DNA from: Microgenomates group bacterium Gr01-1014_7
GTDB lineage: Bacteria; Patescibacteriota; Microgenomatia; Daviesbacterales; UBA10151
Length of the DNA: 64,000 nt
Direction: 5' to 3'
Assembly (NCBI GenBank): GCA_007376405.1
Contig: VMGD01000003.1
Span: 336-64,335 of the forward strand
Below are positions 9,433 to 63,361 of the stretch, one piece after another (within the stretch, counting starts at the first letter, position 1; every line of letters begins with the position of its first letter). A program made the translations under genes and the position numbers. The notes beneath the pieces were generated by a model. That model saw only the letters and a program-made list of their open reading frames with translations, had not been told where the DNA came from and ran no database searches.

Positions 9433-9438
9433 GTTCCA

Positions 9439-18952: not shown

Positions 18953-18953
18953 A

Positions 18954-39276: not shown

Positions 39277-40659
39277 ATGATATACAAACCGACATTTTCC
39301 TCGGTAATTGCAAACCGGGGATTTTTAAACCTGTGGGTTAATCAGATTTTAGTTCAGCTTTCCTATAATTCCTTAAATTTTGCTTTAATTATTTGGGTTT
39401 TTAGCTTAACAGGATCAAACATCGCAGTTTCCGCATTGTTATTTGCTATTTACATACCTGCTGTAATTTTGGGGCTTTTTGCCGGAGTTTTGGTGGATGT
39501 TACGGACAGAAAAAAGATAATTCTTTCAATCAATATTTTACTTTCCATTTCTTATTTCAGTCTGATCTTTTTCAAGGAGAGTTACTTTGCTATCCTAATA
39601 ATTGCTTTTTTTGTTAATGCCCTGGGCCAATTTTACGCCCCGGCAGAAGCATCAGCAATCCCTCTAATTGTTAAAAGAAGGGAGCTTATTACTGCCAATT
39701 CTATTTTTTCTGCTACTTTATATTCCTGTTTTCTTTTAGGATTCGGTTTGGCTGGCCCTTTAATTACTCATTTAGGAATTGATTTTGTTTTTGGATTTGA
39801 AGGGATAGCCTTGGCACTGGGCTTTATTTTTGCTTTGAGCTTTCCCTCCATTATTACCAGGCCGGATGAAGAGGGTAAAAAATTGCTGGTGGCTTTAAGG
39901 AAAAGAAAATTTTCCGATATTAAGGATATTGGTATTATTGAAATTGTCAGAACAATGAGGTTAATAAGGGGGAAGTTGTCGGTTGTAACCTCAATCGGGA
40001 TTCTGGCAGGAGTACAGATGGTGGTTGGAATTCTGGCAGTACTGATGCCTGGATTTTTGGAAAACTCCTTACGGATTAAAGCAACAGATGCATCTTATGT
40101 TTTAGTTATTCCCCTTGGTGCGGGAATAGTCACGGGTGGACTCGTTTTGGGAAAATTAGCACATAAATTTGTCAAAAGAATACTGGTAGGCAGAGCCATT
40201 GTTTTTGGAGGTTTACTTTTTTTTCTGGTTGGGATATCTCCAATCATTTCACCGGCAATTAACTATTTGCATAAACCCAAGGCCCTGGCCTTTTTTACCC
40301 AACCGTCCCTCTCTTCAGTGTTAATAGTCGGATCATTTCTTTTAGGCATAGCCATGGTTTCAATTTTGGTTCCATCCCAAACAGTCTTACAGGAAAATAC
40401 TCCGGAACAGGATCGGGGAAAAGTCTTTTCCGTTTTAGGGGTGGCTATGGCCGCTCTTTCTTTGATCCCGGTACTTTTAGCAGGTGTTTTGGCAGATCTT
40501 TTTGGAACAGCGCCGATTTTTACCGGATTGGGAGCAGTTATAATGTTAATAGGACTTTTGGGGCTCAAACCAAGCTTATTTTTTCCCGGTAAAAGCTTGC
40601 CATATAAGACAAAAGAATTTTTAGGACTGGGACACTGGACAAAGAGCAATGTTTCTTAA
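39277..40659 (+). CDS. MFS transporter
   Basis: 12 predicted TM helices; D-R-K-like loop motif GVLVDVTDRKKII. Confidence 0.6.
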   Translation: MIYKPTFSSVIANRGFLNLWVNQILVQLSYNSLNFALIIWVFSLTGSNIAVSALLFAIYIPAVILGLFAGVLVDVTDRKKIILSINILLSISYFSLIFFKESYFAILIIAFFVNALGQFYAPAEASAIPLIVKRRELITANSIFSATLYSCFLLGFGLAGPLITHLGIDFVFGFEGIALALGFIFALSFPSIITRPDEEGKKLLVALRKRKFSDIKDIGIIEIVRTMRLIRGKLSVVTSIGILAGVQMVVGILAVLMPGFLENSLRIKATDASYVLVIPLGAGIVTGGLVLGKLAHKFVKRILVGRAIVFGGLLFFLVGISPIISPAINYLHKPKALAFFTQPSLSSVLIVGSFLLGIAMVSILVPSQTVLQENTPEQDRGKVFSVLGVAMAALSLIPVLLAGVLADLFGTAPIFTGLGAVIMLIGLLGLKPSLFFPGKSLPYKTKEFLGLGHWTKSNVS

Positions 40660-41752
40660 AGCTTTTAATCTGACAAACTTCCGCAATTATGCCCGGCTGG
40701 AATTAAATTTCGATACACGCCCTACTATTTTAGTGGGTAATAATGCTGCCGGAAAATCTAATCTTCTGGAAGCTATTTATCTTCTTTCCACCACCAAATC
40801 TCTACGTGTTGAAACTGAAGATGAGTTGATTAAAGAAGGGGAGGAATTTGTCAGAGTGGAGGGATTTTTTCGTCCAGAGGACGACCAGCCTTTGGCTGGA
40901 GGTTCGGAAACCGAGCTTTTGGTAATAATCAACCGTTCTACAGAGCAAGTTAGCTTCAGGAAAAAAGTAATGGTTAACGGAATTTCCAAAAGAGCAGTTG
41001 ATTTTATTGGAAACTTACCGGCTGTAATTTTTTATCCTCAAGATATAAATATGGTAACCGGTGCTCCCAGCCTTCGCCGGTGGCATTTGGATTTAAGTCT
41101 TGCGCAAGTGGATTCTTCCTATAAAAAAACATTAACTTTATATGAGCAGATTTTAACTAATAGAAATAGAGTGTTAAAGAGCATCAGGGAAGGACAAGGG
41201 AAGGCAGATGAGCTTAAATACTGGACAGATGAGCTGGCAGAAAAGGGGGAAGGGGTAAGGGTAAAGCGTGAAGAATTCTTCAAGTTTATTAATAATCTGG
41301 AAAGTCCGTTGGGGGATTTTAGGTTTGAGTATTTACAGAGTCCGATTTCTGTAGAAAGATTAAGGGAAACAAATGGCAGGGAAGTGGCTGCGGCAGCAAC
41401 ATTGATAGGACCACATCGTGACGATTTTGTCGTCACGACCCTGAGCGAAGTCGAAGGGCAGGGATCACGTGATCTGGCACATTTCGGTTCAAGAGGTGAG
41501 CAAAGAACCGCTACTTTAGCCTTTAAATTAGCTCAGCTTGAATATATGGCTAAAATTTTGGGGAAGAGGCCAATACTTTTATTGGATGATGTTTTTTCCG
41601 AGCTGGATGCCAATCACCGGGCTCATGTGGTGGAAATAGTTGGCAAACAGCAAACAATCATTGCCACAGTTGAACTGGAAAATATTCCTAAATCCTTTTT
41701 AGATTCTGCAAGAATTCTTAAAGTGGAGGATGGAAAAATCAGCGGGAGTTGA
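40649..41752 (+). CDS. recF: DNA replication and repair protein RecF
   Basis: Walker A GNNAAGKSNLLEA; GPHRDD signature; carries palindromic insertions at 41417..41474. Confidence 0.8.
   Translation: MFLKAFNLTNFRNYARLELNFDTRPTILVGNNAAGKSNLLEAIYLLSTTKSLRVETEDELIKEGEEFVRVEGFFRPEDDQPLAGGSETELLVIINRSTEQVSFRKKVMVNGISKRAVDFIGNLPAVIFYPQDINMVTGAPSLRRWHLDLSLAQVDSSYKKTLTLYEQILTNRNRVLKSIREGQGKADELKYWTDELAEKGEGVRVKREEFFKFINNLESPLGDFRFEYLQSPISVERLRETNGREVAAAATLIGPHRDDFVVTTLSEVEGQGSRDLAHFGSRGEQRTATLAFKLAQLEYMAKILGKRPILLLDDVFSELDANHRAHVVEIVGKQQTIIATVELENIPKSFLDSARILKVEDGKISGS
41417..41474. repeat. Cluster of perfect palindromes inside recF (CGTGACGAttttGTCGTCACG; CCCTGAGCGAAGTCGAAGGGCAGGG, related to family A termini; GATCACGTGATC)
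   Basis: Read directly from the sequence. Confidence 0.5.
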
Positions 41753-45812: not shown

Positions 45813-48800
45813 AGAAAGTACTAATTCTTGGTTCGGGAGCGCTAAAAATAGGTGAGGCCGGAGAATTTGATTACTCGGGCTCGCAAGCTTTAAAGGCCTT
45901 AAAAGAAGAAGGCGTTGCGACAGTTTTAATTAACCCTAATATTGCAACCATACAAACCTCAAAAGAGCTGGCTACTAAAGTTTACTTTTTACCGGTGACT
46001 CCCTATTTTGTCATCAGAGTAATTGAGAAAGAAAGGCCTGATGGGATTTTTTTATCATTTGGAGGGCAAACTGCCTTAAATTGTGGACTGGCACTTAATA
46101 AAAAGGGAGTTCTGAAAAAATATAATGTAGTTGTTTTAGGGACTCCTGTTAAAAGTATAGAGATAACTGAAGACAGGGAGCTTTTTGCTAAAGAGCTTGC
46201 AAAAATCGGGGTTAAAGTACCCATGGGGGGGTTTGCCAAGACTGTTGAGGATGCAAAAAAAATCGCTCACGGTTTAGGTTATCCGGTTTTGATAAGGTCC
46301 GGATTTTCTTTAGGAGGTTTGGGTTCAGGAATAATAGAAAAAGAAAAAGATTTAATAAAGATGGTTTCAGTAGCCTTAAAGCATGCCCCCCAAATAGCAG
46401 TTGAAGAGTATTTAAAACACTGGAAAGAAATAGAATATGAAGTGGTAAGAGATAATCTGGGTAATGAAATTACTGTCTGCAACATGGAAAACATGGATCC
46501 ATTAGGTATCCATACGGGGGAGAGTATTGTAGTTGCTCCATCTCAAACCCTTAATAATTATCAGTATCATATGCTCCGCAAGTTATCTTTGCAGGTAGTT
46601 GAACATTTAGGTGTAGTGGGAGAATGTAATATCCAGTTTGCTCTAAATCCCAAAGATAATGATTATCGGGTAATTGAAGTAAATGCCAGGTTATCCAGGT
46701 CATCTGCTCTGGCTTCAAAAGCAACAGGATATCCGCTTGCGTATATTGCCGCAAAGATTGGCCTGGATTATAACTTGTCTGATTTAAAAAATTCTGTTAC
46801 AGAATCTACCTCTGCCTTTTTTGAGCCGGCTCTGGATTATCTGGTGGTTAAAATTCCCCGCTGGGATTTGCAAAAATTCGCGGGAGCCAAAGAGTCTATT
46901 GGATCAGAAATGAAAAGCGTAGGTGAAGTAATGGCTATTGGCAGAAGTTTTCCTGAATGTCTGCAAAAGGGTGTAAGAATGCTGGAAACCGGCCAGGACG
47001 GACTTTTATCAAACGGGGTTGATGATACCAAACTTACACCTACTTCCGAGCGTCTTTTTGCCGTAGCCAAAAGACTGTCAAAGCTAGAAAGTGTTGATGA
47101 TATTTATCAGGAAACCGGTATTGACCCCTGGTTTTTATACCAGATTAAAAAAATAGTGGATTTTGAAATAAACTTAAAGAAAAAAAACCTTCTGGAAGCG
47201 AAAAAAATGGGATTTTCGGATAAAATAATTGCCAGAGCCTTTAAAAAAAGTGAAGAAGAGATCAGAAGTGACAGGAAAAAGCAGGGAATTGTCCCCAAAG
47301 TTAAGCATATTGATACTTTGGCAGCAGAGTATCCGGCAAAAACCAATTATTTGTATATGACTTATCATGGAGAGGAAAGTGAAGGGGAATCCCTCGACTA
47401 CGTTCGGGACAAGCGCGTGAAGCGTGAAGGGGAAAGCGAAAAAGCAATAGTCCTGGGGTCAGGGCCATACCGGATTGGGTCATCGGTTGAATTTGACTGG
47501 TGTTCGGTAACCGCGACGCAAACTCTAAAGAAAAAAGGAGTAGAGGTGGTACTAATAAATTGTAATCCTGAAACCGTTTCCACGGATTATGATATGGCAG
47601 ATAAACTGTACTTTGAAGAACTAACATTTGAACGTGTCAGTGATATTGCAGATATTGAGGGAGGGAATCTTGTATTATCTTTCGGAGGACAAATACCAAA
47701 CAATCTGGCAATGCCCGTATTCAAAGCAGGGTATAAAATTCTAGGCACGGCACCTCAAAATATTGACAAAGCAGAAGACCGGGATAAGTTTTCAAAGATT
47801 TTAGATAAATTAAATATTGGGCAACCGGCATGGAGAATCTTAAAATCCATTGATGATGCTATCGGGTTTGCCGGAATTATAACTTATCCTGTTTTAATCA
47901 GGCCTTCATATGTGCTTTCAGGATCAGCTATGAATGTTTGTTTTACCCCCCTGGAGTTAAAAAAATACTTAAAACAGGCAACAGAGGTTTCAAGTGAGCA
48001 TCCTGTGGTAATTTCCAAATTTATAGAAGGAGCCAAAGAAATAGAAATAGACGGAGTAGGGCAGGATGGTAAACTGATAATTTATGCTATTTCCGAACAT
48101 GTAGAAAATGCGGGGGTGCATTCCGGGGATGCAACTTTAGTTCTTCCCCCGCAAAAACTTTATCTGGAAACTGTCAGAAAGATCAAAGAAACTACTAAAA
48201 AAATACTGGCGGAGCTAAAAATAACCGGACCTTTTAATATCCAGTTTCTGGCAAAGAAAAATGAATTGCTTGTAATAGAGCTTAATTTACGCTCTTCCCG
48301 GTCTTTTCCCTTTGTTTCCAAAGTAACAGGCTATAATTTTGTGGATATGGCTACAAGGGTTATGCTGGGGGAGGATTTAAGAGGAGATTATCAGACAGTT
48401 GATCTTGACTACGTGGCAGTAAAAGCTCCACAATTTTCATTCCATCGGATCAAAGGGGCAGATCCAAGACTTCGGGTTGAAATGTCTTCAACAGGGGAGG
48501 TAGCCTGTTTTGGAGGGGATTTACAGGAAGCCTACTTAAAAGCTTTACTTTCTGTTGGATTTAAATTGCCTGAAAATGCGGTCTTTCTGGCACTGGGAGG
48601 GGATAAAAATAAACTTGATTTTTTACCTGCTGCCAAACTGTTAGTTTCCATGGGTCTTAAAATTTATGCTACGAAAGGAACTTCAAAATTTTTACAGGCA
48701 CAGGGGATAAACGCTACCCGTGCATTTAAAATCTCGGAGAAAAAATACCCCTCTGCTTTAGACTTGATGCAGCAGGGGAAAATAGATCTGGCTATTAATA

Positions 48801-50421: not shown

Positions 50422-52134
50422 ATGACATTTGCTAAACTTTCCCAATATTTTGAAAAACTTGAAGAAACATCCTCCAGACTTATCTTAATTGATATTTTAT
50501 CCGAACTTTTTTTTAAGGTGAGAGCTGATGAAATTGGGATGGTTTCCTATCTTTTGCAGGGAAGAGTAGCCCCATTTTATGAACCAATTGAGATGGGAAT
50601 GTCGGAAAAGCTGGTAGCTCAAGCCATGGCCCGAGCTTACGGGGTGGATCGCGAGCAAGTGCTCAAGGAATATGGAAGAGCGGGGGATTTGGGGAAGGTG
50701 GCGGAGAAATTTGCAAAAGAATTAAGAATCAAGAATAAAGAATTAAGCGTAGAAGAAGTGTTTAAAATCTTAACTGAAATTGCCAAAACTACAGGGGATG
50801 GGACCGTAGAAAAGAAAATAGCTCTTCTTGCAGGTTTACTCTCAAAAATGGATGGAGTTTCGGCTAAACACCTGGTAAGAATTCCCCTTGGGGTACTGCG
50901 GCTGGGGATAGGTGATCCAACTATTTTGGATGCTTTTTCCCTCGCATACGCTCGGGACAGGGCCAAACGTCCGATACTTGAAGCTGCATATAATAAAGTT
51001 TCGGATTTGGGTTTAGTGGGAGAAACTTTATCGAAGGGCGGGCTAAAGGCTGTTGAAAGATTAAGTGTAACAGTCGGGCGTCCAATAAGATCACAACTGG
51101 CAGAAAGATTACCAACTCCTGAAAAAGTTATTGAAAAAATGGGAACTGTTAATGCGCAAAGAAAATTAGATGGCTTTAGGGTGGCTATACATAAGAAAGC
51201 TAGCGAAGTAAGGCTTTTTTCCAGGAATCTGGAGGAAACAACCCCCATGTTTCCGGAAATAGTTGAAGGAGCAAAGAAACAAATTAAAGCTAAAAGTGTA
51301 ATTCTTGATGCCGAAGCCATTGGTTTTAATCCTATTTCCGGTGAATTTTTGCCCTTTCAGGAAACAACTCAAAGAAGAAGAAAGTATGGCATTGAAGAAA
51401 TGGCCAAAAAAATCCCTCTTAAGACTTTTTGTTTTGATATTTTATACAAGGATGGGACATCCTTGATCGATCAGCCTTTGGCTGCTCGATTAAAAACGTT
51501 AAAAAATACAATCAAAGACGGAGAAGTGCTTTTTCCCGAACTGGGAATAGTGGTTGAGACGGCTAAAAAATTGCAAATAATGCTGGATGAGAGTATTTCG
51601 GAAGGACTAGAGGGTTTGGTTGTTAAGAGGTTGGATAGCAAATATGAGGCCGGAGCCAGAAATTTTAACTGGGTAAAACTAAAAAGGCACTCAGATGGTG
51701 AGCTTAGAGATACAATTGATTGCGTGATTTTGGGTTATATTTATGGCAGGGGAAAAAGAGCATCATTCGGTGCGGGCGCGCTACTTGTTGGTGTTTACGA
51801 TGAGTCGCAAGACGAATTCGTGACAGTCAGTAAAATAGGAACCGGTTTAACAGATGAAGAGTTTAGGGAAATTCGAAGGAGGGCAGATAAAATTAAGGTT
51901 GATAAGCAGCCCGCTAGAGTCAATTCCATTTTAAAGCCTTCAGTTTGGATTGCTCCGGAAATTGTAATTGAAGTTTTGGCAGATGAAATAACCAGAAGCC
52001 CGATTCACAGCGCAGGCTATGCCCTGCGTTTCCCCAGACTTATTAAATTCCGCGAGGCCGACAAAAAAGCCGAAGACGCAACTACGGTTAAAGAGTTAAT
52101 TGAGATGTATCATCAGCAGTTTAAGAAAATATAA
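50422..52134 (+). CDS. ATP-dependent DNA ligase (archaeal/eukaryotic LigB type)
   Basis: KLDGFRV (KxDG adenylation motif I); three-domain length of 570 aa. Confidence 0.8.
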   Translation: MTFAKLSQYFEKLEETSSRLILIDILSELFFKVRADEIGMVSYLLQGRVAPFYEPIEMGMSEKLVAQAMARAYGVDREQVLKEYGRAGDLGKVAEKFAKELRIKNKELSVEEVFKILTEIAKTTGDGTVEKKIALLAGLLSKMDGVSAKHLVRIPLGVLRLGIGDPTILDAFSLAYARDRAKRPILEAAYNKVSDLGLVGETLSKGGLKAVERLSVTVGRPIRSQLAERLPTPEKVIEKMGTVNAQRKLDGFRVAIHKKASEVRLFSRNLEETTPMFPEIVEGAKKQIKAKSVILDAEAIGFNPISGEFLPFQETTQRRRKYGIEEMAKKIPLKTFCFDILYKDGTSLIDQPLAARLKTLKNTIKDGEVLFPELGIVVETAKKLQIMLDESISEGLEGLVVKRLDSKYEAGARNFNWVKLKRHSDGELRDTIDCVILGYIYGRGKRASFGAGALLVGVYDESQDEFVTVSKIGTGLTDEEFREIRRRADKIKVDKQPARVNSILKPSVWIAPEIVIEVLADEITRSPIHSAGYALRFPRLIKFREADKKAEDATTVKELIEMYHQQFKKI

Positions 52135-52174: not shown

Positions 52175-52702
52175 ATGCAAAATGAAGGCTACAAAAATCT
52201 TCCCTTTTTTAAACAGACAGAAATAATCTATGATTTTACCGTAGACTTCGTTAAAAAATATATTGACTACAAATCCCGTACCAAAGACCAGATGGAGCAG
52301 GCAGCCCGCTCCGGGAAACAGAATATAGCTGAAGGATATTTACAAAAAAGTTTAGAGGGAAGAATTAAGTTGGTGGGTGTAGCTCGCGGCTCTTTAGAAG
52401 AGCTTTTAAATGATTATTTGGATTACTTGCGTCAGCATAGGTTAAAGCTTTGGGATATGAATTCTGCGGAAGCCCGAAAAGTCCGAAGCTTCGTATATAA
52501 CAGTTATAACGATTATAAAAATTATAAAGATTATATTGAAAACCCGGAAAGCGCAGCTAATGCTATGATTTGCCTAATTAACCAAACCAACCGCTTACTG
52601 GATCAAAAAATCCGCTGGCTAGAAGAAAAATTTATTAATGAAGGCGGATTCAGGGAAAACCTTTTTAAAAAGAGGATGGAAAAAAGAAAAGCAGTGAGGT
52701 AA
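52175..52702 (+). CDS. Four-helix-bundle protein (TIGR02436, the so-called 23S rRNA IVS protein family)
   Basis: FKQTEIIYDFTVDF...AEGY...GSLEEL family pattern; start trimmed to ATG 52175. Confidence 0.55.
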   Translation: MQNEGYKNLPFFKQTEIIYDFTVDFVKKYIDYKSRTKDQMEQAARSGKQNIAEGYLQKSLEGRIKLVGVARGSLEELLNDYLDYLRQHRLKLWDMNSAEARKVRSFVYNSYNDYKNYKDYIENPESAANAMICLINQTNRLLDQKIRWLEEKFINEGGFRENLFKKRMEKRKAVR

Positions 52703-52711
52703 AATGCCTGC

Positions 52712-55330
52712 ATGGCATATGTAGCTGATTTGCATATTCATTCCAGATTTTCCAGGGCTTGTTCACAACAACTTAATATTCCAAATTTAGTAGAGTGGGC
52801 CAAATTAAAAGGCATAAATCTTTTAGGGACAGGGGATTTTTTACACCCACTTTGGCTAACAGAATTAAAACATCAGCTTAAAGAAGATGGGTCAGGGTTT
52901 TTAAAGGGTAAAGCGGAAAGCGTAAAGGGGGAAGAGGTAAGATTTGTTCTGACAGTAGAGATTGCTTCAATGTATTCTCATGGAGGCAGAGGCAGAAGAA
53001 TCCATAATCTGGTTTTTATGCCCGGCTTTGAGGCTGCTGAAAAATTCCAAAAAGCACTTTTAGCAAGAAGAGCAACTTTAGCTTCAGATGGTAGGCCAAT
53101 TGTAGGTATTCCCTCAAAAGAACTTCTGCAGATGGCGCTAACTGCTGACAAAAAAGCCATTTTTATTCCGGCTCACTGTGTCTTACCCGATACCCAAGTG
53201 CACACTGTTAAAGGAATGCAAGAAATACAAAGCATAAAGCCAGGTGATTTAGTTTATACCCACAATAATCGTAAAAGAGAGGTAACAGAAGTCATCAAAC
53301 ACGAGCACGACGGGACTTTATACAAAATTCAACCTTGGTATTTCTCTCCTGGTTTAGAAGCGACCGAAGAACACCCTTATTATGGTTTCCATATAAAATA
53401 TTGTCCTTCAACTGGTTCTCCTTGCCTTCCTACAGAAGCACATAAAAGAAGATGTAAACATAAATTTTATGAACAATATATCCCAATATGGCTTCCTGCA
53501 CAGGATTTAAGAGATGGAGATGTTTTGGTTTTTCCTAGATTTACTAATACTACACCAATGCCAACGCTTTTTTTAGATAAAGAATTAGCATATCAAGCCG
53601 TAGGTGAGTTAATCAAAACAGGAGGTTCAAGAGGCCATATTTTTAACCAGCAAATTCAAATTGATGAGAGCTTTTGCAGATTAATTGGCTACTATTTAGC
53701 TGAAGGTTCCCTTAGTACAACAAAAGGACACATAAGCCTCGCATTTAATCAGAGTGAGAGTGTGTATATTGAAGATGTAAAGCAATTGATTGAGAAAGTA
53801 TTTGGAATAAAGCATATACGCATATATAGAAGATTAAATAATAAGGGGGTGGAGATAACCATTTATTCTAAATTAATTTCAGAACTTTTTGCCAAACTTT
53901 TTTATACAGACAATTCGCATAAAGCATTTAATAAGAATTTACCTGACTGGATGCTTCATTTGCCAGAATTTCTGCAGGCTCAAATCTTGCTAGGATGGTG
54001 GAGGGGTGATCATGGTTATACTGTTTCGCGATCTTTAATGAATCAAATGAAAGTTATTTGTTTACGTCTGGGGATTGTTCCCTCGATAGGTGTTGACAAA
54101 TCAGAGAATCATCTTAAGAGAGGAAATCATATATATCAGGATAGAATTATCAAAGCAACTTCAGATCTTTATTACTTCTCCGGGCTTGCTTTTTTTGAAG
54201 ATAAATATAATCTTTTAAGTGATCCTGTATTTGAGGAATCTAAGCGTAAACTTACAAGAAGACATGGATGGATTGATAAAGACTATATCTATATGCCTAT
54301 CCGTAAAATTACCAGGAGGAAGTATACAGGGGAGGTTTTTAATTTGGAGGTAGACGAAGATAATTCCTATATAACTGAATTTGCTGCAGTACATAATTGC
54401 TGGACGCCCTGGTTTGGTCTATTTGGGTCCGAAAGTGGATATGATTCGCTAGAGGAGTGTTTTGAGGATTTAACAGACCATGTGTATGGGATTGAAACCG
54501 GGCTCTCAAGCGATCCGGCTATGAACTGGAGGATAAAGGAACTTGATAACCGCTCAATTATTTCCTGTTCTGATGCGCATTCCTTGCCAAATCTGGGAAG
54601 AGAGGCAACGGTGATAGAAGGGGAATTTAGCTATAATGGTTTATGGAAAGCTGTTTCTAACCCTTCTATCATTCTGAGGCCGAAGGCCGAAGAATCCCCC
54701 ACGAATGTGGGTTCTGACATTCGTCAGAGGTCCTTCGCTAAAGCTCAGGACGACAATAGAATTGTCGGTACCATTGAATTTCATCCTGAGGAAGGGAAAT
54801 ATCATTATACCGGACACAGAAACTGCGGAGTTAAATATGATTCGGAACAGGAAGTTGCAAACGGGGTTATTTGTCCAAAGTGCAAAAGACCCTTAACCGT
54901 GGGAGTAATGAGTAGAGTAGAGAAGATCGCAGGGCGATCAGTAGATGAAGTAGGGATGTTAGAGGATGAGCAGGGAATAATCAAAAGCAAGGTCTTTAAT
55001 AGGCCGGGATACCGGATGTTAGTCCCGCTTTTGCAGATTATTGCGGAAGCGCTACACTCTACTCCAACAAGCCAAAAAGTATTAAACGAGTATAAAAAGT
55101 TAGCAATTAATCTGGGTGGAGAAATTAAGGTTTTAACTAAGGTTGATGTGTCGGAAATTGCCAAACTTTCCGGCCCCAGAATTACTGAAGGGGTGGAAAG
55201 AATGAGAAAAGGTACTATTGTAATTGATCCCGGATATGATGGAGTCTATGGAGTGGTAAAAATATGGCCCGATGGGGAATCGATTGAAGAAAGTAGCGCA
55301 GAAGCTCCACAGTTGGGATTGTTTGATTAG
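52712..55330 (+). CDS. PHP-domain phosphoesterase with a C-terminal Zn ribbon (COG1379-like), interrupted by an intein
   Basis: N-terminal DLHIHSRFS PHP motif; CPKCKRPLTVG zinc ribbon; intein at codons 156-562. Confidence 0.65.
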   Translation: MAYVADLHIHSRFSRACSQQLNIPNLVEWAKLKGINLLGTGDFLHPLWLTELKHQLKEDGSGFLKGKAESVKGEEVRFVLTVEIASMYSHGGRGRRIHNLVFMPGFEAAEKFQKALLARRATLASDGRPIVGIPSKELLQMALTADKKAIFIPAHCVLPDTQVHTVKGMQEIQSIKPGDLVYTHNNRKREVTEVIKHEHDGTLYKIQPWYFSPGLEATEEHPYYGFHIKYCPSTGSPCLPTEAHKRRCKHKFYEQYIPIWLPAQDLRDGDVLVFPRFTNTTPMPTLFLDKELAYQAVGELIKTGGSRGHIFNQQIQIDESFCRLIGYYLAEGSLSTTKGHISLAFNQSESVYIEDVKQLIEKVFGIKHIRIYRRLNNKGVEITIYSKLISELFAKLFYTDNSHKAFNKNLPDWMLHLPEFLQAQILLGWWRGDHGYTVSRSLMNQMKVICLRLGIVPSIGVDKSENHLKRGNHIYQDRIIKATSDLYYFSGLAFFEDKYNLLSDPVFEESKRKLTRRHGWIDKDYIYMPIRKITRRKYTGEVFNLEVDEDNSYITEFAAVHNCWTPWFGLFGSESGYDSLEECFEDLTDHVYGIETGLSSDPAMNWRIKELDNRSIISCSDAHSLPNLGREATVIEGEFSYNGLWKAVSNPSIILRPKAEESPTNVGSDIRQRSFAKAQDDNRIVGTIEFHPEEGKYHYTGHRNCGVKYDSEQEVANGVICPKCKRPLTVGVMSRVEKIAGRSVDEVGMLEDEQGIIKSKVFNRPGYRMLVPLLQIIAEALHSTPTSQKVLNEYKKLAINLGGEIKVLTKVDVSEIAKLSGPRITEGVERMRKGTIVIDPGYDGVYGVVKIWPDGESIEESSAEAPQLGLFD
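53177..54397 (+). mobile_element. Intein (407 aa) with a LAGLIDADG homing-endonuclease domain
   Basis: Block A: Cys1 followed by VLPDTQV; two LAGLIDADG blocks (LIGYYLAEGS, ILLGWWRGDHG); C-terminal ...AAVHN followed by the extein Cys. Confidence 0.75.
54673..54754. repeat. Palindromic element family A, copy 1 (82 bp), in frame inside the PHP/intein gene C-extein
   Basis: Conserved termini TCTGAGGCCGAAGGCCGAAGAATC ... TCCTTCGCTAAAGCTCAGGACGAC (imperfect TIRs); internal hairpins CCCAC/GTGGG and CTGAC/GTCAG. Confidence 0.6.
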
Positions 55331-55951
55331 ATGAAGATATTCAAGGATAGACAATCTGCAGGTCAGTTACTCGCTAAACGTCTTAAAAACATCCATGCTG
55401 ATCTGGTTTTGGGGATTCCTAGAGGTGGGGTGGTGGTGGCTGCCGAGGTAGCAAAGATTCTTAAGCTACCTCTGGACATTATTGTTACCCGTAAAATAGG
55501 CGCTCCAATGCAGCCGGAATTGGCACTTGGTGCAGTTGATCCGGACGGGGAATGTATCTGGGAAGGGAATTTACTAAAAGATTTAAGATTAAAGATTAAT
55601 GATTTAGGAGAAATAATTCAGAATGAATGGAAAGAGTTAAAGAGGAGAGAAGATTTGTATAGAGGGGAAAAACCGCCGCTTAAGCCCGAAGGAAAAATTG
55701 TCATTCTGGTTGATGATGGGATTGCTACAGGTGCAACAACTCTTGCTGCCATAAATTTTCTAAAAAGACATAAGGCTAAAGAGATTATTCTCGCTGTGCC
55801 TGTTGCCAGCAAAGAATCAGCTGAAAGATTAACTGAGCAGATAGATGAAGCAATGATCCTGGAAACTCCGGATTATTTCCAGGCCGTGGGCCAGTTTTAT
55901 CAAAGTTTCTTACCTGTTTCTGATGAAGAGGTGGTACAATTTCTTTCATGA
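55331..55951 (+). CDS. Type I phosphoribosyltransferase domain protein
   Basis: VILVDDGIATGATTLAA PRPP-binding motif. Confidence 0.55.
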   Translation: MKIFKDRQSAGQLLAKRLKNIHADLVLGIPRGGVVVAAEVAKILKLPLDIIVTRKIGAPMQPELALGAVDPDGECIWEGNLLKDLRLKINDLGEIIQNEWKELKRREDLYRGEKPPLKPEGKIVILVDDGIATGATTLAAINFLKRHKAKEIILAVPVASKESAERLTEQIDEAMILETPDYFQAVGQFYQSFLPVSDEEVVQFLS

Positions 55952-56721
55952 TTGATTCGGAGTTTTTAAAAGTGGCCAAACAAGCTGCCATTGAGGCAGG
56001 AAAAATAGTTAAAAAATATTACCAGTCTGAACTCACTCTTTATAATAAAGGCCATTTTACTAATTTTGCTACGGAAGCAGACCTGCAAACGGAAAAAAAG
56101 ATTATTGAAATTATTAAAAGGAATTTTCCTACGCATAATATTATTGCTGAAGAAAGTGGAGGGGTAAAGAGTAAGTCAGAATATACTTGGGTTATTGATC
56201 CTATTGATGGTACGATAGCTTTTGTGGATGGTATTCCTACTTTTGGGATCTCCATAGGGTTATTAAAAAATAATGAGCCATTCCTCGGGGTTATTAGTCT
56301 GGTGGCAACAAGTCAGTTGTATTGGGCGGAAGCCGGCACGGGAGCTTTTTTAAACGGTAAAAGAATAAGTACAAGAAAAATATCTAATTTAGAAAATTGC
56401 ACTATTGCTTTCGGTTATGGACATAAAGACGGGTTGGCAATACTGGACAGCTTTTTCCGACCATTAATGGGAAGGGTTAGACAAATTTATCTTTTTGGTT
56501 CAGCAGTTTCAAGCATGTGTTATATTGCTAGGGGAATGATAGATAGCTATATTATTAGTGGTCATGTTTGGGATGTAGCTGCAGGAGCAATAATTGTGAA
56601 AGAGGCAGGAGGAAAGGTAACAGATCTCGGGGGTAATAAGCCTGATTGGACAAAGGATAGAATGGGATTAGTATTGTCAAACGGCTTAATTCATGATCAA
56701 ATACTGGAGGTACTAAAGTGA
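55948..56721 (+). CDS. Inositol monophosphatase/FBPase-family (SuhB-like) phosphatase
   Basis: WVIDPIDGT metal-binding motif. Confidence 0.7.
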   Translation: MIDSEFLKVAKQAAIEAGKIVKKYYQSELTLYNKGHFTNFATEADLQTEKKIIEIIKRNFPTHNIIAEESGGVKSKSEYTWVIDPIDGTIAFVDGIPTFGISIGLLKNNEPFLGVISLVATSQLYWAEAGTGAFLNGKRISTRKISNLENCTIAFGYGHKDGLAILDSFFRPLMGRVRQIYLFGSAVSSMCYIARGMIDSYIISGHVWDVAAGAIIVKEAGGKVTDLGGNKPDWTKDRMGLVLSNGLIHDQILEVLK

Positions 56722-57281
56722 AAATCATTGTCGGATTGGGAAATCCGGAGGATAAATATAAATCAGTCAGGCATAATTTGGGATTTATGGCGGTGGATAA
56801 ATTAGTATCGAGTATTAAGTATGAAGTATTATGGGAAGACAATAAAAAGTTTAAGTCTCAAATTGCCCGAGTTTCACCCGAACTTTTAGTAGCAAAGCCG
56901 CAGACTTATATGAATAATTCGGGAATGGCAGTGAAGTTACTGGCTGATTACTACAAAGTTTCTCCTGCAGATATTGTCATTATTTATGATGAGTTGGATT
57001 TACCTCTGGGAAAAATTAAAGTACGTTTAGGTGGAGCAGCAGCAGGGCATCATGGTGTGGAATCAATCATTGATGCACTGGGTACGGATCAATTTATCAG
57101 GGTAAGACTTGGGATTGGGAATTTAAGAACCCAAAGCTCCGAACACAAACATGCTCATGTTAATGCGGAGAAATTTGTGCTGGAACCTTTTATGCACTCT
57201 GAAAAAGCGCAAGTAAAACATATGATTAAGCAGGCAATTAAACTATTGCACAAAATTATTACAACTGGTAAACTAAATTGA
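56718..57281 (+). CDS. pth: Peptidyl-tRNA hydrolase
   Basis: MKIIVGLGNPEDKY...RHNLGF N-terminal signature. Confidence 0.85.
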   Translation: MKIIVGLGNPEDKYKSVRHNLGFMAVDKLVSSIKYEVLWEDNKKFKSQIARVSPELLVAKPQTYMNNSGMAVKLLADYYKVSPADIVIIYDELDLPLGKIKVRLGGAAAGHHGVESIIDALGTDQFIRVRLGIGNLRTQSSEHKHAHVNAEKFVLEPFMHSEKAQVKHMIKQAIKLLHKIITTGKLN

Positions 57282-58024
57282 TGAAAAATAGCTTAAATCC
57301 TCTTTATTCCACTTCCACAGCAATTCTAGCGGGAGCTTTAATAGTAGCAATTTCTGTTTTAATGCATGGAGGTATTATTAAATTAGGTAAAGGGGTAAGT
57401 GCTCCTTCTCCGGCTGCTCCTGCAGCCGGTCAACCTGTCCAGCCACAAGTTCAGGGTAAAACAGAAGCGGATATTGTTAAGGGATTAAAAACTTATGCCG
57501 GAAAGGCAGGCTTGGACCAGGGTAAATTCGATTCATGTCTGGATTCTGGTAGTAAAGCCTCTGCAGTTTCCAAAGATTTAGCCGATGGTACGGCAGCAGG
57601 TGTAAATGGCACTCCGGCATTTTTTGTTAACGGCAGGATTATTTCAGGAGCAGTGCCGTTTGAGCAGTTTAAAACCGTAATTGATGAAGAGATACAAGGG
57701 AGCGCCGCAACAACCGTTACCAGGCAAACCGTGGCAGTGGGGGATTTGCCTGTTCTTGGTAAAGAATCTGCTAAAGTAACTTTAATTGAATTTTCAGATT
57801 ATGAATGCCCGTTTTGTGAAAGGCATTTTAGCCAAACCGAACCTCAACTTAAAAAAGATTACATAGATAAAGGACTGGTTAAATTTTATTACAGGGATTT
57901 TCCTTTAACTTCTATTCATCCCGGAGCTCAAAAAGCAGCTGAAGCAGCAAGGTGCGCAAATGATCAGGGAAAATACTGGGAATATCATGATATAGTTTTT
58001 TCAAACCGCCAGGCTATTTTCTAA
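57278..58024 (+). CDS. DsbA-like thioredoxin-fold protein (membrane-anchored)
   Basis: CPFC active site; N-terminal TM segment. Confidence 0.6.
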   Translation: MMKNSLNPLYSTSTAILAGALIVAISVLMHGGIIKLGKGVSAPSPAAPAAGQPVQPQVQGKTEADIVKGLKTYAGKAGLDQGKFDSCLDSGSKASAVSKDLADGTAAGVNGTPAFFVNGRIISGAVPFEQFKTVIDEEIQGSAATTVTRQTVAVGDLPVLGKESAKVTLIEFSDYECPFCERHFSQTEPQLKKDYIDKGLVKFYYRDFPLTSIHPGAQKAAEAARCANDQGKYWEYHDIVFSNRQAIF

Positions 58025-58621
58025 ATGAGCAAAAAATGGATAATAATAAGTGTAATTACTGCTTTGTTTATAGCTTTTCTTGCTTGGCTTTTTATTGAAT
58101 CCTCAAAACCGCTGCCCGGAGAAAAAATAGCTGATTTGGGAAGGGGACATGTACCTGCTGGTACAAAAGTTGAATATAATTCAAACCCCCCAACATCAGG
58201 CAAGCATTATGAGGAATGGATTAGGGCAGGGGTATATAGCGAGCCCAAAGATGATAGAAATTTAGTTCATTCCCTGGAGCATGGGTACGTGATATTAAGT
58301 GTAAAGTGTAATCCCTCGACTGCGCTCGGGACAAGCGTTAAAAGTGAAAAGTTAGAGGAGGCGACAGCAAGCGGAGAAGCAACAGGGTCAGGAGAATTTA
58401 AGGCTGATGATGAATGCAGGAACAGATTGGAACAGCTTTCCAGAATTTATGAAAAAAAGGGTAAAAGAAAGTTGATTGTGGTTCCAAGGGAGAATTTAGA
58501 AACAGATTTTGCACTTACTGCCTGGCAGTTTCTTGATAAATTTGATCAATTTGATGCAGGTAGGATTGAAAAGTTTATTGATGCACATTTGAATCAAGGT
58601 CCGGAGAAAACAATGGAATAA
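58025..58621 (+). CDS. DUF3105-like membrane-anchored protein; carries a hairpin repeat at 58310..58337
   Basis: N-terminal TM segment; PTSGKH...HSLEHGY pattern. Confidence 0.3.
   Translation: MSKKWIIISVITALFIAFLAWLFIESSKPLPGEKIADLGRGHVPAGTKVEYNSNPPTSGKHYEEWIRAGVYSEPKDDRNLVHSLEHGYVILSVKCNPSTALGTSVKSEKLEEATASGEATGSGEFKADDECRNRLEQLSRIYEKKGKRKLIVVPRENLETDFALTAWQFLDKFDQFDAGRIEKFIDAHLNQGPEKTME
58310..58337. repeat. Hairpin repeat family B copy (AATCCCTCGACTGCGCTCGGGACAAGCG), in a different reading frame from the carB copy
   Basis: Differs from the carB copy only at the two loop positions (R/Y: tacgtt vs tgcgct); flanked by AAAGTG(T/A)AA direct repeats. Confidence 0.55.
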
Positions 58622-58622
58622 T

Positions 58623-59390
58623 ATGTCGATTTTGGGATACATATTAGTATTTACTTTAATAGGAAGTGTTATTTCCTTAATTGGAGGAATTTTACTACTT
58701 TTAAAGGAAAAATTTGCTTTAAAAATTTCCCATTATCTCTCCGCTTTTGCAGCAGGAGCTTTACTTGCCACAGCTTTTTTTGATCTTTTACCGGAAGCAG
58801 CAGAGCATATGGAAGAACTAGGAATAAGCATAAACCTTCCTTTTTGGACACTTCTTGGTATTTTAGGTTTTTTTCTGATTGAGAGATTTATTCATCACCA
58901 TCATGGTCATGGTCAAAGCAGAGAAGAAAAAAAATCAATAATACCTCTGGTAATAATAGGGGATACAATGCATAATTTTACTGATGGCGTTGCTATTGCT
59001 GCGACCTTTTTAATAAGTATCCCCTTGGGTATTGTAACCTCCCTTGCTGTGGCAGCTCATGAAATTCCCCAGGAGATTGGGGATTTTGGATTGATGCTTA
59101 ACAGGGGAGTGGAAAGAAAGAAAGTGCTTTTAATAAACTTTTATAGTGCTTTAGCTGCTATGGTAGGAGCTTTATTAACTTATATTTATAAAGACAAACT
59201 CGAAGGTCTCTTACCTGTTATTTTATCTGTCACTGCCGGATTTTTTATCTACATTGCTTTGGCAAATTTAATCCCGGAAATACATAATCGGGATAATCAA
59301 AAAGTAGCTTTCTGGGAAACAGTGATGCTATTTGTTGGTGTGATAGTAATATACTTTGCTATTTCTTCCTTGGAAGGCTTGACAAGGTAG
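58623..59390 (+). CDS. zupT: ZIP-family zinc transporter
   Basis: HNFTDGVAIA and HEIPQEIGDF motifs; His-rich loop. Confidence 0.7.
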   Translation: MSILGYILVFTLIGSVISLIGGILLLLKEKFALKISHYLSAFAAGALLATAFFDLLPEAAEHMEELGISINLPFWTLLGILGFFLIERFIHHHHGHGQSREEKKSIIPLVIIGDTMHNFTDGVAIAATFLISIPLGIVTSLAVAAHEIPQEIGDFGLMLNRGVERKKVLLINFYSALAAMVGALLTYIYKDKLEGLLPVILSVTAGFFIYIALANLIPEIHNRDNQKVAFWETVMLFVGVIVIYFAISSLEGLTR

Positions 59391-59427
59391 TTATTTTCGA
59401 TTATATTAGAAATGAAGCAATATTTTT

Positions 59428-61146: not shown

Positions 61147-61313
61147 CCCTCTCATGAGACTGTCCGTCGAGTCACCATCATTCATTATCCGTGGTCCATA
61201 TATCCCGGAGATTGGGGTAGAAATTGATCCTGCGCCCATAACTTATTCAAGAAGAAGAGGAAGAAGATCATTTAGGAGTACTTTGGCTTACAGGCTGGGT
61301 AAGCTGAAAAGAG

Positions 61314-62321
61314 CTAAGAAAGATGATTCTGGCTCAATCTCGTTCCTTCTCCAGGATTATTAACAATAATTTCTTTTACCTCTTTTATGCTCTTTATTTT
61401 ATTCACAACTTTTTTTACATTTTTTTGTTCACAGATTAAATGAATATCCTGGCCGGTATTGATGGTAAAGTATACCGGTATGCCTTCTGCCCTCCAATGA
61501 GATACCAGTTTCATAATCTTTAAGGTTCCGGGGGTCCAATATATGAGCGGAGGATATTGGGTAAGCATGATGGCGTGAAGCTCCAAGGCTTCTGCCTCAG
61601 CCAGCTCTCCTAAAGACTTAAAATTTTTCTCTTTAATAAGTTGTTTGACTAGCTTATCTTTCTCTTTCATATGGGAAAGACGAATGGACATGAATGGGGA
61701 AGATTTTGCTGCTTTGTGTCCTACTGATGTAGGAACTTCTTTTTTACCTTCCGATACTATTGCCACCACATCACAAATTGCCCAATGATCCGGAGGAAAA
61801 ATAGAAACTGCATAGGAGGTTTCTGATGTATCTCCATCCAGCCACTCCACAAACCCTCCCGGAATTGATCTGCAGGCAGAACCTGATCCTTGTCTGGTCA
61901 GTATAGATAGTTCTTTTTCAGATAAATCCAAACCGGCGGCTTTGGATGTAGCTAAAGTTAAGGCAGCAAAACCTGAAGCAGAAGATGAAAGCCCTGTTCC
62001 GATAGGAAAATTGTTTTTAGAAACTACTTTGGCTTTAAGGCTAATTTTAGCCATTTTTCTAACTCTATCCAGGTGTTTAATGACTCTTTGTGCTTCACCT
62101 TCTTCAACACCTCCGCCATTAATAATTACTTCATCTCTTGTATATTTAGGGGAAAATTCTACAGTAGTAGTAGTTAATAAATTTGAAAGACACATGGAAA
62201 TACTTCCATTTTCAGGAAGCCTTAAAATTTCATCCTTTTTACCCCAGCATTTGGTAAATGCAATATTAGATGGTGCCACAGCAGTTGCCTTTCGGCTGCG
62301 CTCAAGGTCAATGACTTTCAT
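61314..62321 (-). CDS. mvaD: Diphosphomevalonate decarboxylase
   Basis: NIAFTKCWGKKD (MVD signature NIAxxKYWGKRD); GHMP-family fold. Confidence 0.75.
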   Translation of the reverse strand: MKVIDLERSRKATAVAPSNIAFTKCWGKKDEILRLPENGSISMCLSNLLTTTTVEFSPKYTRDEVIINGGGVEEGEAQRVIKHLDRVRKMAKISLKAKVVSKNNFPIGTGLSSSASGFAALTLATSKAAGLDLSEKELSILTRQGSGSACRSIPGGFVEWLDGDTSETSYAVSIFPPDHWAICDVVAIVSEGKKEVPTSVGHKAAKSSPFMSIRLSHMKEKDKLVKQLIKEKNFKSLGELAEAEALELHAIMLTQYPPLIYWTPGTLKIMKLVSHWRAEGIPVYFTINTGQDIHLICEQKNVKKVVNKIKSIKEVKEIIVNNPGEGTRLSQNHLS

Positions 62322-63361
62322 TCAATTCTTACTCCTTCCGCATTGGTTTTGATATTAATTACTTGTCCACCGGCTTCGGTTATGGCTTTTTTTATAGCCT
62401 GTTTACCCTGAACGGAGTGAAGGGCAATCATGCAATCTCCAACTCCTGCTCCGGAAAGCTTTGCTCCATAAGCCCCGCCGTCCCTGGCAGCATAGATCAT
62501 CCTGCTAAGTTTTTTGCCTTCAACTCCCAATGTAGCCAGATATCCTTCATTAAAATTCATCAGTTCTCCTAAACTTTCCCAATCTTCCTTTAGTATAGCT
62601 TTTTTTGCTTGTTCTACTAATTGGCCAATTTGGTCATAAACATTACCTATAACCCATGGGTATTTTTTTGCTTTTTGAGCCACCTCGTCAATAATTCTAA
62701 CCGTATCAAACTTAATCCCACTATATCCTACTATTAATGGCAAAGTGTTAATTTTCAATGGCTGGATAACTTTACCGGGACTTACAAAGTATAAAGTTCC
62801 TCCATATATAGCTGCGGCAACATCAAATCCGGATCCTTTTCCCTGAATATCCAAAACAGTTTTGTAAGCCAGATTAAATATCTGTTTATTATCTAAATTA
62901 GCACCAGTTAACTGCGACAAAGCTTTAATTACACAAACAGTTGAGGCAGAAGAGGAGCCAAAACCAAACTCCGATGAAAATTCAGACTTTGTGACAATCT
63001 TGATTCCAAGATTGTCATTCTGAGGCGAAGCCGAAGAATCTCTCAATTTATTTGAGGGTCGCATTCGCGACAGATCCTTCGCTAATCGCTCAGGATGACG
63101 GTTCAGAAAGTTCTTCACCGTCATCTCCACAAACTTGGCTCCTTTGGGAATTTCTCCTTTACCCAAATGAGTTATTGGTTTTTGGTAATTGGTTATTTGT
63201 ACGTCAGGAGCATCAAGCTGGAAAATTTTATCATCAGTTAATTCTACAGTAGCTGTCATTCTCTGATTTACAGCCGTAACCAGGCATGGTTTGCCATAAA
63301 CCACAGCATGTTCACCCAAAAGCATTAATTTCCCCGGAGCAGAAACTGTAATCTTTTTCAT
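62318..63361 (-). CDS. mvk: Mevalonate kinase-like GHMP kinase; carries a palindromic element at 63019..63099 in frame
   Basis: GHMP ATP-binding motif (EFGFGSSSAS); operon with mvaD. Confidence 0.6.
   Translation of the reverse strand: MKKITVSAPGKLMLLGEHAVVYGKPCLVTAVNQRMTATVELTDDKIFQLDAPDVQITNYQKPITHLGKGEIPKGAKFVEMTVKNFLNRHPERLAKDLSRMRPSNKLRDSSASPQNDNLGIKIVTKSEFSSEFGFGSSSASTVCVIKALSQLTGANLDNKQIFNLAYKTVLDIQGKGSGFDVAAAIYGGTLYFVSPGKVIQPLKINTLPLIVGYSGIKFDTVRIIDEVAQKAKKYPWVIGNVYDQIGQLVEQAKKAILKEDWESLGELMNFNEGYLATLGVEGKKLSRMIYAARDGGAYGAKLSGAGVGDCMIALHSVQGKQAIKKAITEAGGQVINIKTNAEGVRIE
63019..63099. repeat. Palindromic element family A, copy 2 (81 bp), inside mvk (minus-strand gene)
   Basis: Termini TCTGAGGCGAAGCCGAAGAATC ... 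TCCTTCGCTAATCGCTCAGGATGAC; internal hairpins CTCAAtttaTTTGAG and TCGCattcGCGA. Confidence 0.6.

Follow-up and report, generated by a model that had tools for sequence, protein, structure and literature searches.

Genomic Context and Host Genes

In the present work, we analyzed a stretch of 64,000 nucleotides (hereafter, the window) from a groundwater bacterium of the candidate phyla radiation (CPR), with a GC content of about 39% and nearly all coding, with regard to a group of palindromic elements, here named Family A, that lie within its protein-coding genes. The mevalonate kinase encoded by the window shares 100% identity with the enzyme of Microgenomates group bacterium Gr01-1014_7, the nearest relatives being Candidatus Daviesbacteria. 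Two Family A elements, A1 and A2, are embedded in the gene for an endonuclease Q (EndoQ) family protein and in the mevalonate kinase gene (mvk), respectively, and the remnant of a related doublet lies in recF (Table 1).

An initial annotation, made from the sequence alone, had placed two palindromic elements of 81–82 bp inside a "PHP protein" gene (54673–54754) and inside mvk (63019–63099). Both were found at those places; the first host is indeed a conserved gene, more exactly one of the EndoQ family, and the boundaries, taken here as the outermost conserved bases, are a few bases wider. An independent assembly (L328) is 100% identical to the window across positions 52318–63361, both elements included; therefore, A1 and A2 are not assembly artefacts.

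Table 1. Family A elements, the related remnant, and their host genes in the window.
Feature	Position	Strand	Description
Host gene 1, EndoQ family protein	52712..55330	+	also holds a LAGLIDADG intein
Host gene 2, mevalonate kinase (mvk)	62318..63361	-	insert = residues 89-117
Host gene 3, recF	40649..41752	+	
Family A doublet A1	54668..54754 (87 nt, GC 0.54)	+	translated in frame within the endonuclease Q gene (IILRPKAEESPTNVGSDIRQRSFAKAQDD)
A1 left arm	54668..54696	+	(A)TC tag, ATTCT-GA-GGCC(GAA)GGCC-GA-AGAAT-C; self-folding hairpin
A1 center	54698..54728	+	two small hairpins, CCCAC-GAAT-GTGGG and TCTGAC-ATTC-GTCAGA
A1 right arm	54729..54754	-	minus-strand reading GTC-GTCCT-GA-GCT(TT)AGC-GA-AGGAC-C
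Family A doublet A2	63014..63099 (86 nt GTC to GAC, GC 0.49)	+	translated from the opposite strand in mvk (RHPERLAKDLSRMRPSNKLRDSSASPQND)
A2 left arm	63014..63040	+	GTC-ATTCT-GA-GGC(GAA)GCC-GA-AGAAT-C
A2 center	63043..63071	+	hairpins CTCAA-TTTAT-TTGAG and GTCGC-ATTC-GCGAC, maintained in orthologs by compensatory changes
A2 right arm	63073..63099	-	minus-strand reading GTC-ATCCT-GA-GC(GATTA)GC-GA-AGGAT-C
Remnant of related doublet in recF	41429..41474	+	one arm-like module CCCT-GA-GCGAAGTC-GA-AGGG (41439-41458) and palindrome GATCACGTGATC

The intein of the EndoQ gene hosting A1 spans about residues 155–561 (C...HN|C). It is absent from the EndoQ gene of a syntenic relative, L327 (468 aa vs. 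872 aa in the window).

Structure of the Family A Elements

When A1 and A2 were aligned, both directly and against their reverse complements, a common design became apparent, in which two inverted arms of about 27 nt, with their tags pointing outward, enclose one or two small variable hairpins. The arm follows the formula YGTC-ATYCT-GA-[GC-GNA-GC]-GA-AGRAT-C and is composed of a 5' YGTC tag, a 5-bp stem starting with AT, a tandem GA/GA internal loop, and a GC-GNA-GC mini-hairpin core; the latter is the d(GCGNAGC) motif, which is described in a review as an exceptionally stable DNA mini-hairpin (PMC13037366). The tags of A2 are TGTC (left) and CGTC (right), the right arm of A1 has TGTC, and its left arm has a degenerate TATC.

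The near-identical termini and the differing, hairpin-rich interiors mentioned in the initial annotation correspond to these shared arms and to the variable hairpins between them, according to both alignment and folding: as single-stranded DNA, A1 and A2 fold far better than their shuffled counterparts (z from -3.3 to -5.7). Moreover, the arm pattern CTGAG-N4-14-CGAAGRAYC has four matches in the 64 kb, one per arm and on alternating strands, 0.03 being expected from shuffles.

As proposed at the outset, both host open reading frames (ORFs) remain open across the elements; A1 is translated on the plus strand of the element and A2 on its minus strand, which gives rise to unrelated peptides. The net gain over empty orthologs is +31 residues in EndoQ and +25 in mvk and is not exactly that of the element length, owing to remodelling of the original loop. 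No target-site duplication, that is, no direct duplication at the A1 or A2 junctions, was found. The palindromy of A1 reaches 5–6 nt past the tags (TTCTAT...ATAGAA; 54663–54667 and 54755–54759). At the end of A2, positions 63097–63122 contain a 9-bp inverted repeat, GATGACGGT...ACCGTCATC, which lies over the conserved mvk codons EMTVKNFLNRH and employs the GTCATC end of the element; it is missing in the ortholog L122, whose codons there read EIAV.

One might argue that these segments do not represent a repeat at all, and that ordinary lineage-specific protein loops, or an assembly artefact, resemble each other by chance; indeed, only two full copies occur in the 64 kb. The arm statistics, the identical second assembly, the opposite-strand translation into unrelated peptides, and the hundreds of copies existing elsewhere, with conserved flanks that the search pattern had left unspecified (see below), refute this idea and leave it practically no credit.

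The motif noticed inside recF by the initial annotation proved to be a genuine relative. In the syntenic relative L327, the recF site is occupied by a full doublet (955–1067), of which a single arm-like module plus a small palindrome are left in the window. The recF gene of L327 (82–1353) also harbors another variable insert in the region of its N-terminal third (...HPGSANISDTPGVSTFHLGGGVEDPSRSHLPGEHTGSERKFEG...); the corresponding segment of the window is much shorter.

Presence, Absence, and Turnover of the Inserts in Orthologous Genes

The A1 site is empty in 98 out of 121 EndoQ orthologs and filled in the other 23; as for mvk, 70 of 114 close orthologs are at baseline length, and 37 have at least six extra residues at the A2 loop. 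This comparison bears out the view of the two elements as insertions into conserved genes. In particular, the mvk segment from GAKFVE to FGFGSS counts 64 aa in the window vs. 39 aa in Gottesman-, Levy-, and Woesebacteria and in archaeal relatives.

An orthologous copy of A1 is found in L327, with the second center hairpin swapped for a different one, and orthologous copies of A2 are found in L122, L323, L324, and L325. Shorter versions also occur at the mvk loop: only a 21-nt footprint is left in L326 (GTCATCCTGAGCAAAATGAC), and P0031 retains a half-element. Furthermore, the EndoQ and mvk sites harbor inserts of other types, such as VIPANAGIQ...LDPRLRGDD (EndoQ), HPVLDTGS...DSRFRGND (mvk), RHAELVSAS, and SLRG...ARND. 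In the case of mvk, L125 has another doublet, with the same right junction as the window copy and a left junction displaced by 2 nt, and L128 and L136 carry a solo hairpin translated in another frame; therefore, this loop was hit or rewritten more than once. Among close relatives, empty EndoQ sites are interleaved with filled ones. The "xPS" residues flanking the A1 site recur in every filled EndoQ ortholog, regardless of the insert family.

The orthologous mvk segments from GAKFVE to FGFG(S/G)S measure 126, 168, 189, 192, 198, and 198 nt, so that all differences are multiples of 3, and all of them are in frame and stop-free. In the AlphaFold model of the window mvk (mean pLDDT 84), insert residues 92–114 have a pLDDT below 50 and are located between helix 73–88 and strand 119–126; outside the insert, the model can be superposed on mevalonate kinases of solved structure. 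For the mvk insert, the prediction is that of a disordered loop between secondary-structure elements, in agreement with the initial expectation of a location in protein loops. Searches with the Family A insert peptide retrieved no match, either from a word index or with phmmer (31-aa insert against 1.8 billion representatives).

It is conceivable that these inserts are inert relics, deriving from one ancient insertion per site followed by vertical descent, with no living machinery in this lineage; the hairpins would be kept intact by gene conversion among copies and by the self-correction of quasi-palindromes through intramolecular template switching at replication, and would be needed by no enzyme or function. 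The absence of a partner gene from 74 kb of the genome, the junctions of the mvk copy, which share one register in five relatives, consistent with common descent, the trimmed or decayed versions (L124, P0031, P0035, L326, and the recF remnant), and the low density of intact tagged hairpins in related loci would all fit this scenario. It has to face the different families, left junctions, and frames at one and the same loop (L125 and L128/L136 vs. the window), the interleaving of empty and filled sites, and the presence in L258 of an element with a center almost as in A2 within a different flank, which, judging from the sequence, may be a sign of mobility. In addition, the arm is nearly constant in hosts ranging from 0.29 to 0.73 GC, for which self-correction alone is no explanation. 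We are thus inclined to consider this scenario unlikely.

Nucleotide-Level Conservation of the Hairpins

A collection scan with both stem positions left free (GTCAT[Y]CTGAG..CGAAG[R]ATC) revealed that these positions covary, with 88 T..A, 70 C..G, two C..A, and one T..G combinations; that is, 158 out of 161 are Watson–Crick pairs. Since wobble pairs are almost missing from the covarying stem, the constraint appears to act on a DNA hairpin rather than at the RNA level. A second scan, carried out on the metagenome collection, specified the right arm by its inner half only; the outer half-stem, left free, was AGGAT in 98 copies and AGAAT in two. It matches its own inner half and not the left arm; therefore, each arm self-pairs rather than pairing with the other arm. 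The center, although different in sequence from copy to copy, continues the stem, over a mean of 4.0 bp vs. 0.4 bp when shuffled.

In four orthologs, the mvk element shares 82–94% nucleotide identity with the window copy (79–90% at third positions), and the flanking mvk sequence of the same orthologs shares 69–74% (42–52%). Similarly, in the EndoQ pair (window and L327), third positions are 79% identical within the element and 44% in the flanks. As for the A2 center hairpins, three out of ten pairs changed on both sides and none was broken in five sequences. An insert decaying silently within a disordered loop would not be expected to be so conserved. The cause may equally be selection acting on the hairpins, gene conversion among copies, quasi-palindrome self-correction, or renewed insertion at a hot spot.

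The high conservation of third positions and the compensatory changes might also be read as the mark of signals useful to the host, either cleavage marks of the Ssn type, limiting or shaping the uptake and recombination of single-stranded DNA as NTS hairpins do in Neisseria, or mRNA hairpins modulating translation or decay. In favor of this possibility are the published function of NTS and SsnA in transformation (PMC11893778) and the recurrence of DNA-repair genes among the hosts (EndoQ and recF in the window; polA, uvrC-like, and uvrD-like genes elsewhere). Nevertheless, most orthologs have no insert, copies are freely trimmed or lost, the scarcity of G-T pairs speaks against an RNA-level role, and the in-gene positions resemble tolerated loops and not regulatory sites, so that such a usefulness seems to us distinctly improbable.

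The initial annotation had also raised the idea of excision at the RNA level, that is, of a self-cleaving, excised, or intron-like element removed from the mRNA and leaving the protein unaffected. The predicted structure is strong, a group I intron exists elsewhere in this genome, and the arm (CUGA-GGCC-GAA-GGCC-GAAG) bears a superficial likeness to a hammerhead core plus stem II. A hammerhead ribozyme was rejected on sequence grounds, the UGA of the CUGAUGA core being missing from the arm, and neither the Rfam gathering scan of the whole window nor E-value scans around both elements (up to E = 10) retrieved a relevant family. Every orthologous variant is in frame and stop-free, with lengths differing by multiples of 3, the covariation is of the Watson–Crick type only, and the copies found elsewhere are mostly intergenic. 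The excision idea was not borne out, and an element acting at the RNA level is, in our opinion, very hard to sustain.

Distribution Beyond This Genome

The termini are not unique to the two sites of the window, being shared by hundreds of further contigs. The 24-base doublet pattern was retrieved from at least 120 metagenome contigs, with a GC content from 0.29 to 0.73, and the unspecified flanks GTCATT and GCTCAGGATGAC were nearly always there; the base preceding GTCAT was T in 87 and C in 24 of the 115 metagenome copies listed. In the viral collection, the single-arm pattern was found in more than 120 contigs among the matches listed, with solo arms as well as doublets, and the full doublet pattern gave no match. 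As for cultured organisms, one copy is intragenic, in PglX on a plasmid of Planktothrix agardhii, and a second one is located between genes in Gloeothece.

Only 16 of the 122 metagenome copies listed are spanned by a long ORF, and Family A is therefore mainly intergenic elsewhere. The spanned copies mostly belong to contigs of 0.40–0.52 GC, with recognizable hosts such as miaA, polA, mnmE, and a uvrD-like gene. On average, 1.8 of the six frames of a doublet are stop-free, two of them being always closed by the TGA in CTGAG; purifying selection acting on random insertions is therefore sufficient to account for the in-frame survivors. The orientation of the copies relative to GC skew is weakly biased (52 vs. 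30, p ~0.02), and the two copies of the window are both oriented oppositely. The strict family pattern gave three matches in 1.26 Mb of Microgenomates loci, and we do not claim that related Microgenomates genomes are densely peppered with intact copies.

The initial annotation had regarded this behavior as undescribed for this kind of organism. No report of such elements in CPR/Patescibacteria was found in the literature searched, whose coverage is incomplete, and in this respect the statement may hold; the element itself is widespread and mostly intergenic elsewhere, so that it is not peculiar to these organisms. String searches of the literature for the termini and for the encoded peptides retrieved unrelated primers or nothing.

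GIY-YIG Genes Bracketed by Arms and Search for Mobilizing Enzymes

At three loci picked for the doublet alone and belonging to unrelated contigs, a gene for a single-domain GIY-YIG protein of 94–100 aa is located between Family A arms: L220 (7968–8356), L272 (6562–6992), and L243 (about 6363–6815). Their contigs have a GC content of 0.59, 0.65, and 0.36, respectively, and the three proteins are 49–60% identical to one another. The domain was assigned directly through Pfam PF01541 in L220 and L272 (E ~1e-14 to 1e-15) and via tblastn in L243. Moreover, two CPR loci, L194 and L143, encode relatives sharing 37–40% identity, and in L194 two stem-GA-hairpin-GA-stem modules lie just upstream of the gene.

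Within the 150 ORFs adjoining metagenome doublets, 225 families were recognized, none with more than three members; GIY-YIG counted two, and no transposase was enriched. Y1_Tnp was found neither among these ORFs nor in the window, where a large serine recombinase was the only recombinase-type match in the Pfam scan of about 55 ORFs. The search of the viral collection for relatives of the GIY-YIG protein yielded no confirmed locus. Two candidates for autonomous transposons between distant inverted modules were rejected: L014, which contains phage structural genes, and L235, with a DUF1016-like ORF ending in the element.

One could go as far as to propose that the arm–GIY-YIG–arm units of L220, L243, and L272 are autonomous mobile elements of a type not recognized before, in which an Ssn-like single-strand nuclease of about 95 aa, and not a transposase, spreads its own tagged hairpins, and that the doublets are their non-autonomous derivatives, crossing phyla (GC 0.29–0.73) and repeatedly rewriting surface loops of essential proteins in gene-dense CPR genomes. 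We put this forward as a speculative and rather unlikely extension.

Proposed Origin of the Elements

Overall, we consider it probable that Family A belongs to the tagged-hairpin kind of palindromic DNA repeats, non-coding and non-autonomous, similar to repetitive extragenic palindromes (REPs) and related to the Ssn system, and that it is now part of coding sequence. According to this interpretation, the arms would act as single-stranded DNA hairpins recognized, via their YGTCAT tag, by a GIY-YIG single-strand nuclease of the Ssn type, and the arm–GIY-YIG–arm unit might represent the "parent" of the doublets. Spread and turnover would depend either on this enzyme or on replication and repair at hairpins; selection would then eliminate the copies breaking essential reading frames, and the encoded peptide would be a passenger and not the reason for the existence of the element. 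In the gene-dense window, the copies are read through as 25–31 extra residues, stop-free and in tolerant loops.

Several data weigh against this interpretation. Neither a GIY-YIG gene nor a transposase was found among the about 55 ORFs of the window scanned with Pfam, or in the 10 kb past its right end, and the GIY-YIG association concerns three of about 116 doublet loci. The bracketed proteins are at most candidate members of the Ssn family proper (cd10448) and have no NCBIfam match, and the nearest solved structure is that of a UPF0213 GIY-YIG protein, with a weak match (E 6e-4). Copies are few, with two doublets in the 64-kb window, and a general scan for tagged hairpins in the 1.26 Mb of related Microgenomates loci gave 23 hits vs. 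15 in the Markov control, which is not a significant enrichment. The published degenerate pattern of the Ssn-related motif (SRM), HGTCWYN(0-2)YYVSBRHN(0-5)WNVSBRGN(0-2)RNCYNB, is matched by none of the four window arms and by none of the 122 metagenome arms listed, and the NTS control matches it; Family A departs from this pattern, as well as from the definition of an 8–9-bp stem, because of its GA/GA loop. Ssn proteins have been shown to cut, not to transpose, and for none of the CGTC/SRM repeats has a mechanism of insertion been established. Lastly, gene conversion or template switching, rather than function, could be the source of the high nucleotide conservation.

In-frame inserts of the REP type, or of the type of Rickettsia palindromic elements (RPEs), are already established as a phenomenon. 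The present data add the CPR to Rickettsia and a few proteobacteria as bacteria whose essential genes are colonized in frame by hairpin repeats, and show that particular loops of mvk, EndoQ, and recF have been filled, exchanged, and trimmed again and again among relatives. They also define an abundant cross-phylum hairpin family, built on the GCGNAGC mini-hairpin and missed by published search patterns, and they offer a candidate enzyme–substrate pair (the GIY-YIG protein and the Family A arm) for the question of what moves or maintains CGTC-type REPs. From a practical viewpoint, in-gene inserts inflate apparent protein divergence and yield spurious "hypothetical" peptides in metagenome annotation.

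Other Repeats and Genes of the Window

A second family of in-gene repeats is present at 47379–47415 (carB), 50927–50963 (ATP-dependent DNA ligase), and 58301–58337 (DUF3105). Read on the minus strand as (GTC)CC-GA-GCG.AGTC-GA-GGGA, it has the stem-GA-hairpin-GA-stem layout of the Family A arm, but it is solo, and it encodes peptides of the ...SLDYVRDK... type. Furthermore, a GC-rich nested palindrome (CACCCCGAAGG...CCTTCGGGGTG enclosing GCCCTGCCCGC...GCAGGCGGGC) lies at 10378–10460, in frame in an ATP-grasp/citrate-binding gene, and short GC-rich palindromes of the CCTGCCGGCAGGCA type occur within coding sequence at 14555–14585, 21240–21262, and 6785–6805; a peptide related to the latter, LPTGRQG, is present in the mvk ortholog P0044.

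A tRNA gene split by a group I intron is located on the minus strand at 4206–4484 (Rfam RF00028, 73.7 bits, 4255–4447); ARAGORN fails to call it, and it abuts the 3' end of the large serine recombinase ORF (2514–4340). About 7–8 kb past the right end of the window, a gene for a 330-aa reverse transcriptase (RVT_1; L328, 1743–2735) adjoins the mevalonate-pathway cluster, and a GC-rich segment of L328 (3387–3424) is similar to part of the group I intron. Finally, a small gene pair occurs in three diverged paralogous copies (9436–9562, 18950–19076, and 43166–43225, alongside 36407–36472, 38104–38169, and 43435–43500), apparently coding for a BrnT-like toxin and a CopG-like antitoxin; the region 19209–19523 matches CopG_antitoxin, and BrnT/CopG genes are found at the syntenic place in L327.

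Comparison with Known Repeat Systems

Family A bears a close likeness to the CGTC-tagged REPs (Di Nocera, De Gregorio and Rocco 2013, BMC Genomics 14:522; PMC3733652), which are characterized by a CGTC/TGTC tag and an AT-initiated stem, are mostly dimers with outward tags, are also intragenic, and lack a dedicated transposase. They include RPE-4 and RPE-6 of Rickettsia conorii and dRS3 of Neisseria, their published peptides comprise VIPAKAGI, DSRFRGND, VIPVLDTGI, and RHSELVSGS, and DNA-repair genes have been noted as hosts of both CGTC and GTAG REPs (PMC3733652).

It shares with them the tag (CGTC, or TGTC/CCTC, at one hairpin end), the A-T start of the stem (ATTCT...AGAAT or ATCCT...AGGAT in the window arms and metagenome copies, the A1 right arm being written GTCCT...AGGAC), the outward-tag dimers with a variable spacer, the in-frame copies of 20–30 residues, the lack of a dedicated transposase, and the DNA-repair genes among the hosts. 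Moreover, the other inserts found at the EndoQ and mvk loops match published peptides of CGTC-1, -2, and -4 (DSRFRGND, VIP.NAGIQ, HPVLDTG, and RHAELVSAS). On the other hand, CGTC-1 to -4 have 8–9 uninterrupted bp and a 4–5-nt loop, whereas the Family A arm has 5 bp, the GA/GA loop, 2–4 bp, and a 3-nt GNA loop, and therefore Family A is not one of the four published CGTC families. Its peptides VILSEAKDL, HPERSEGS, SASPQND, and AQDD are not in the published table, its center has conserved hairpins of its own, and Microgenomates/CPR were not sampled in the published set.

The likeness to RPEs suggested by the initial annotation also goes beyond analogy: the YGTC tag and the AT-initiated stem are those of the superfamily that contains RPE-4 and RPE-6 (PMC3733652), and ortholog inserts at the same sites match published Rickettsia/Wolbachia peptides (DSRFRGND and VLDTG). 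Like RPEs, Family A is palindromic and is found, in a bacterium with a small genome, in frame in unrelated housekeeping genes, translated, and at places where the fold tolerates it. Classic RPEs of the RPE-1 type are about 100–150 bp long and Rickettsia-specific (Ogata et al. 2000, Science 290:347, summarized in PMC10969869 and PMC3733652), whereas Family A is about 60–90 bp long, spans contigs of 0.29–0.73 GC, and is mostly intergenic outside CPR-like contigs, the similarity being limited to the tag. Within a comparison covering RPE-4 and RPE-6 (CGTC-4/-1), its peptides and arms differ from those of both families.

The work on the Ssn nucleases (Nat Commun 2025, 16:2388; PMC11893778) showed that SsnA, a GIY-YIG protein of 94 aa, cuts the CGTCAT-tagged NTS hairpin in its single-stranded form only and in dependence on the upstream tag; the ssn genes, a widespread family, are typically flanked by tagged hairpins. 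Similarly, Family A has a YGTCAT tag directly 5' of the hairpin, its arms flank a GIY-YIG gene of about 94 aa on both sides (L220, L272, and L243), it is spread widely across phyla, and its predicted active form is single-stranded DNA, given the Watson–Crick-only covariation and the strong folds of the single strand. It differs in its in-frame intragenic copies and CPR hosts, which are not described in the accessible text of that work.

REPINs are REP doublets mobilized by RAYTs, which are Y1 transposases similar to those of IS200/IS605 (PMC3116915, PMC2817692). Both systems comprise inverted tagged-hairpin doublets that fold into one larger hairpin, a small gene with its own repeats on either side, and a logic based on the recognition of single-stranded DNA hairpins; the tag of Family A is YGTC and not GTAG, there is no Y1 transposase near its copies, and the flanked gene codes for a GIY-YIG nuclease. 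With bacterial miniature inverted-repeat transposable elements (Correia, ERIC, and Nezha; PMC10969869), Family A shares the short length, the lack of coding function, the terminal inverted repeats, and the sometimes intragenic, in-frame location. It differs from them in having neither a visible target-site duplication nor a parent insertion sequence with matching ends, and each of its "terminal repeats" is a self-complementary hairpin under structural constraint.

From this comparison, Family A is best read as a new family in the known class of CGTC-tagged, Ssn-related REPs, with a putative link to a GIY-YIG nuclease.

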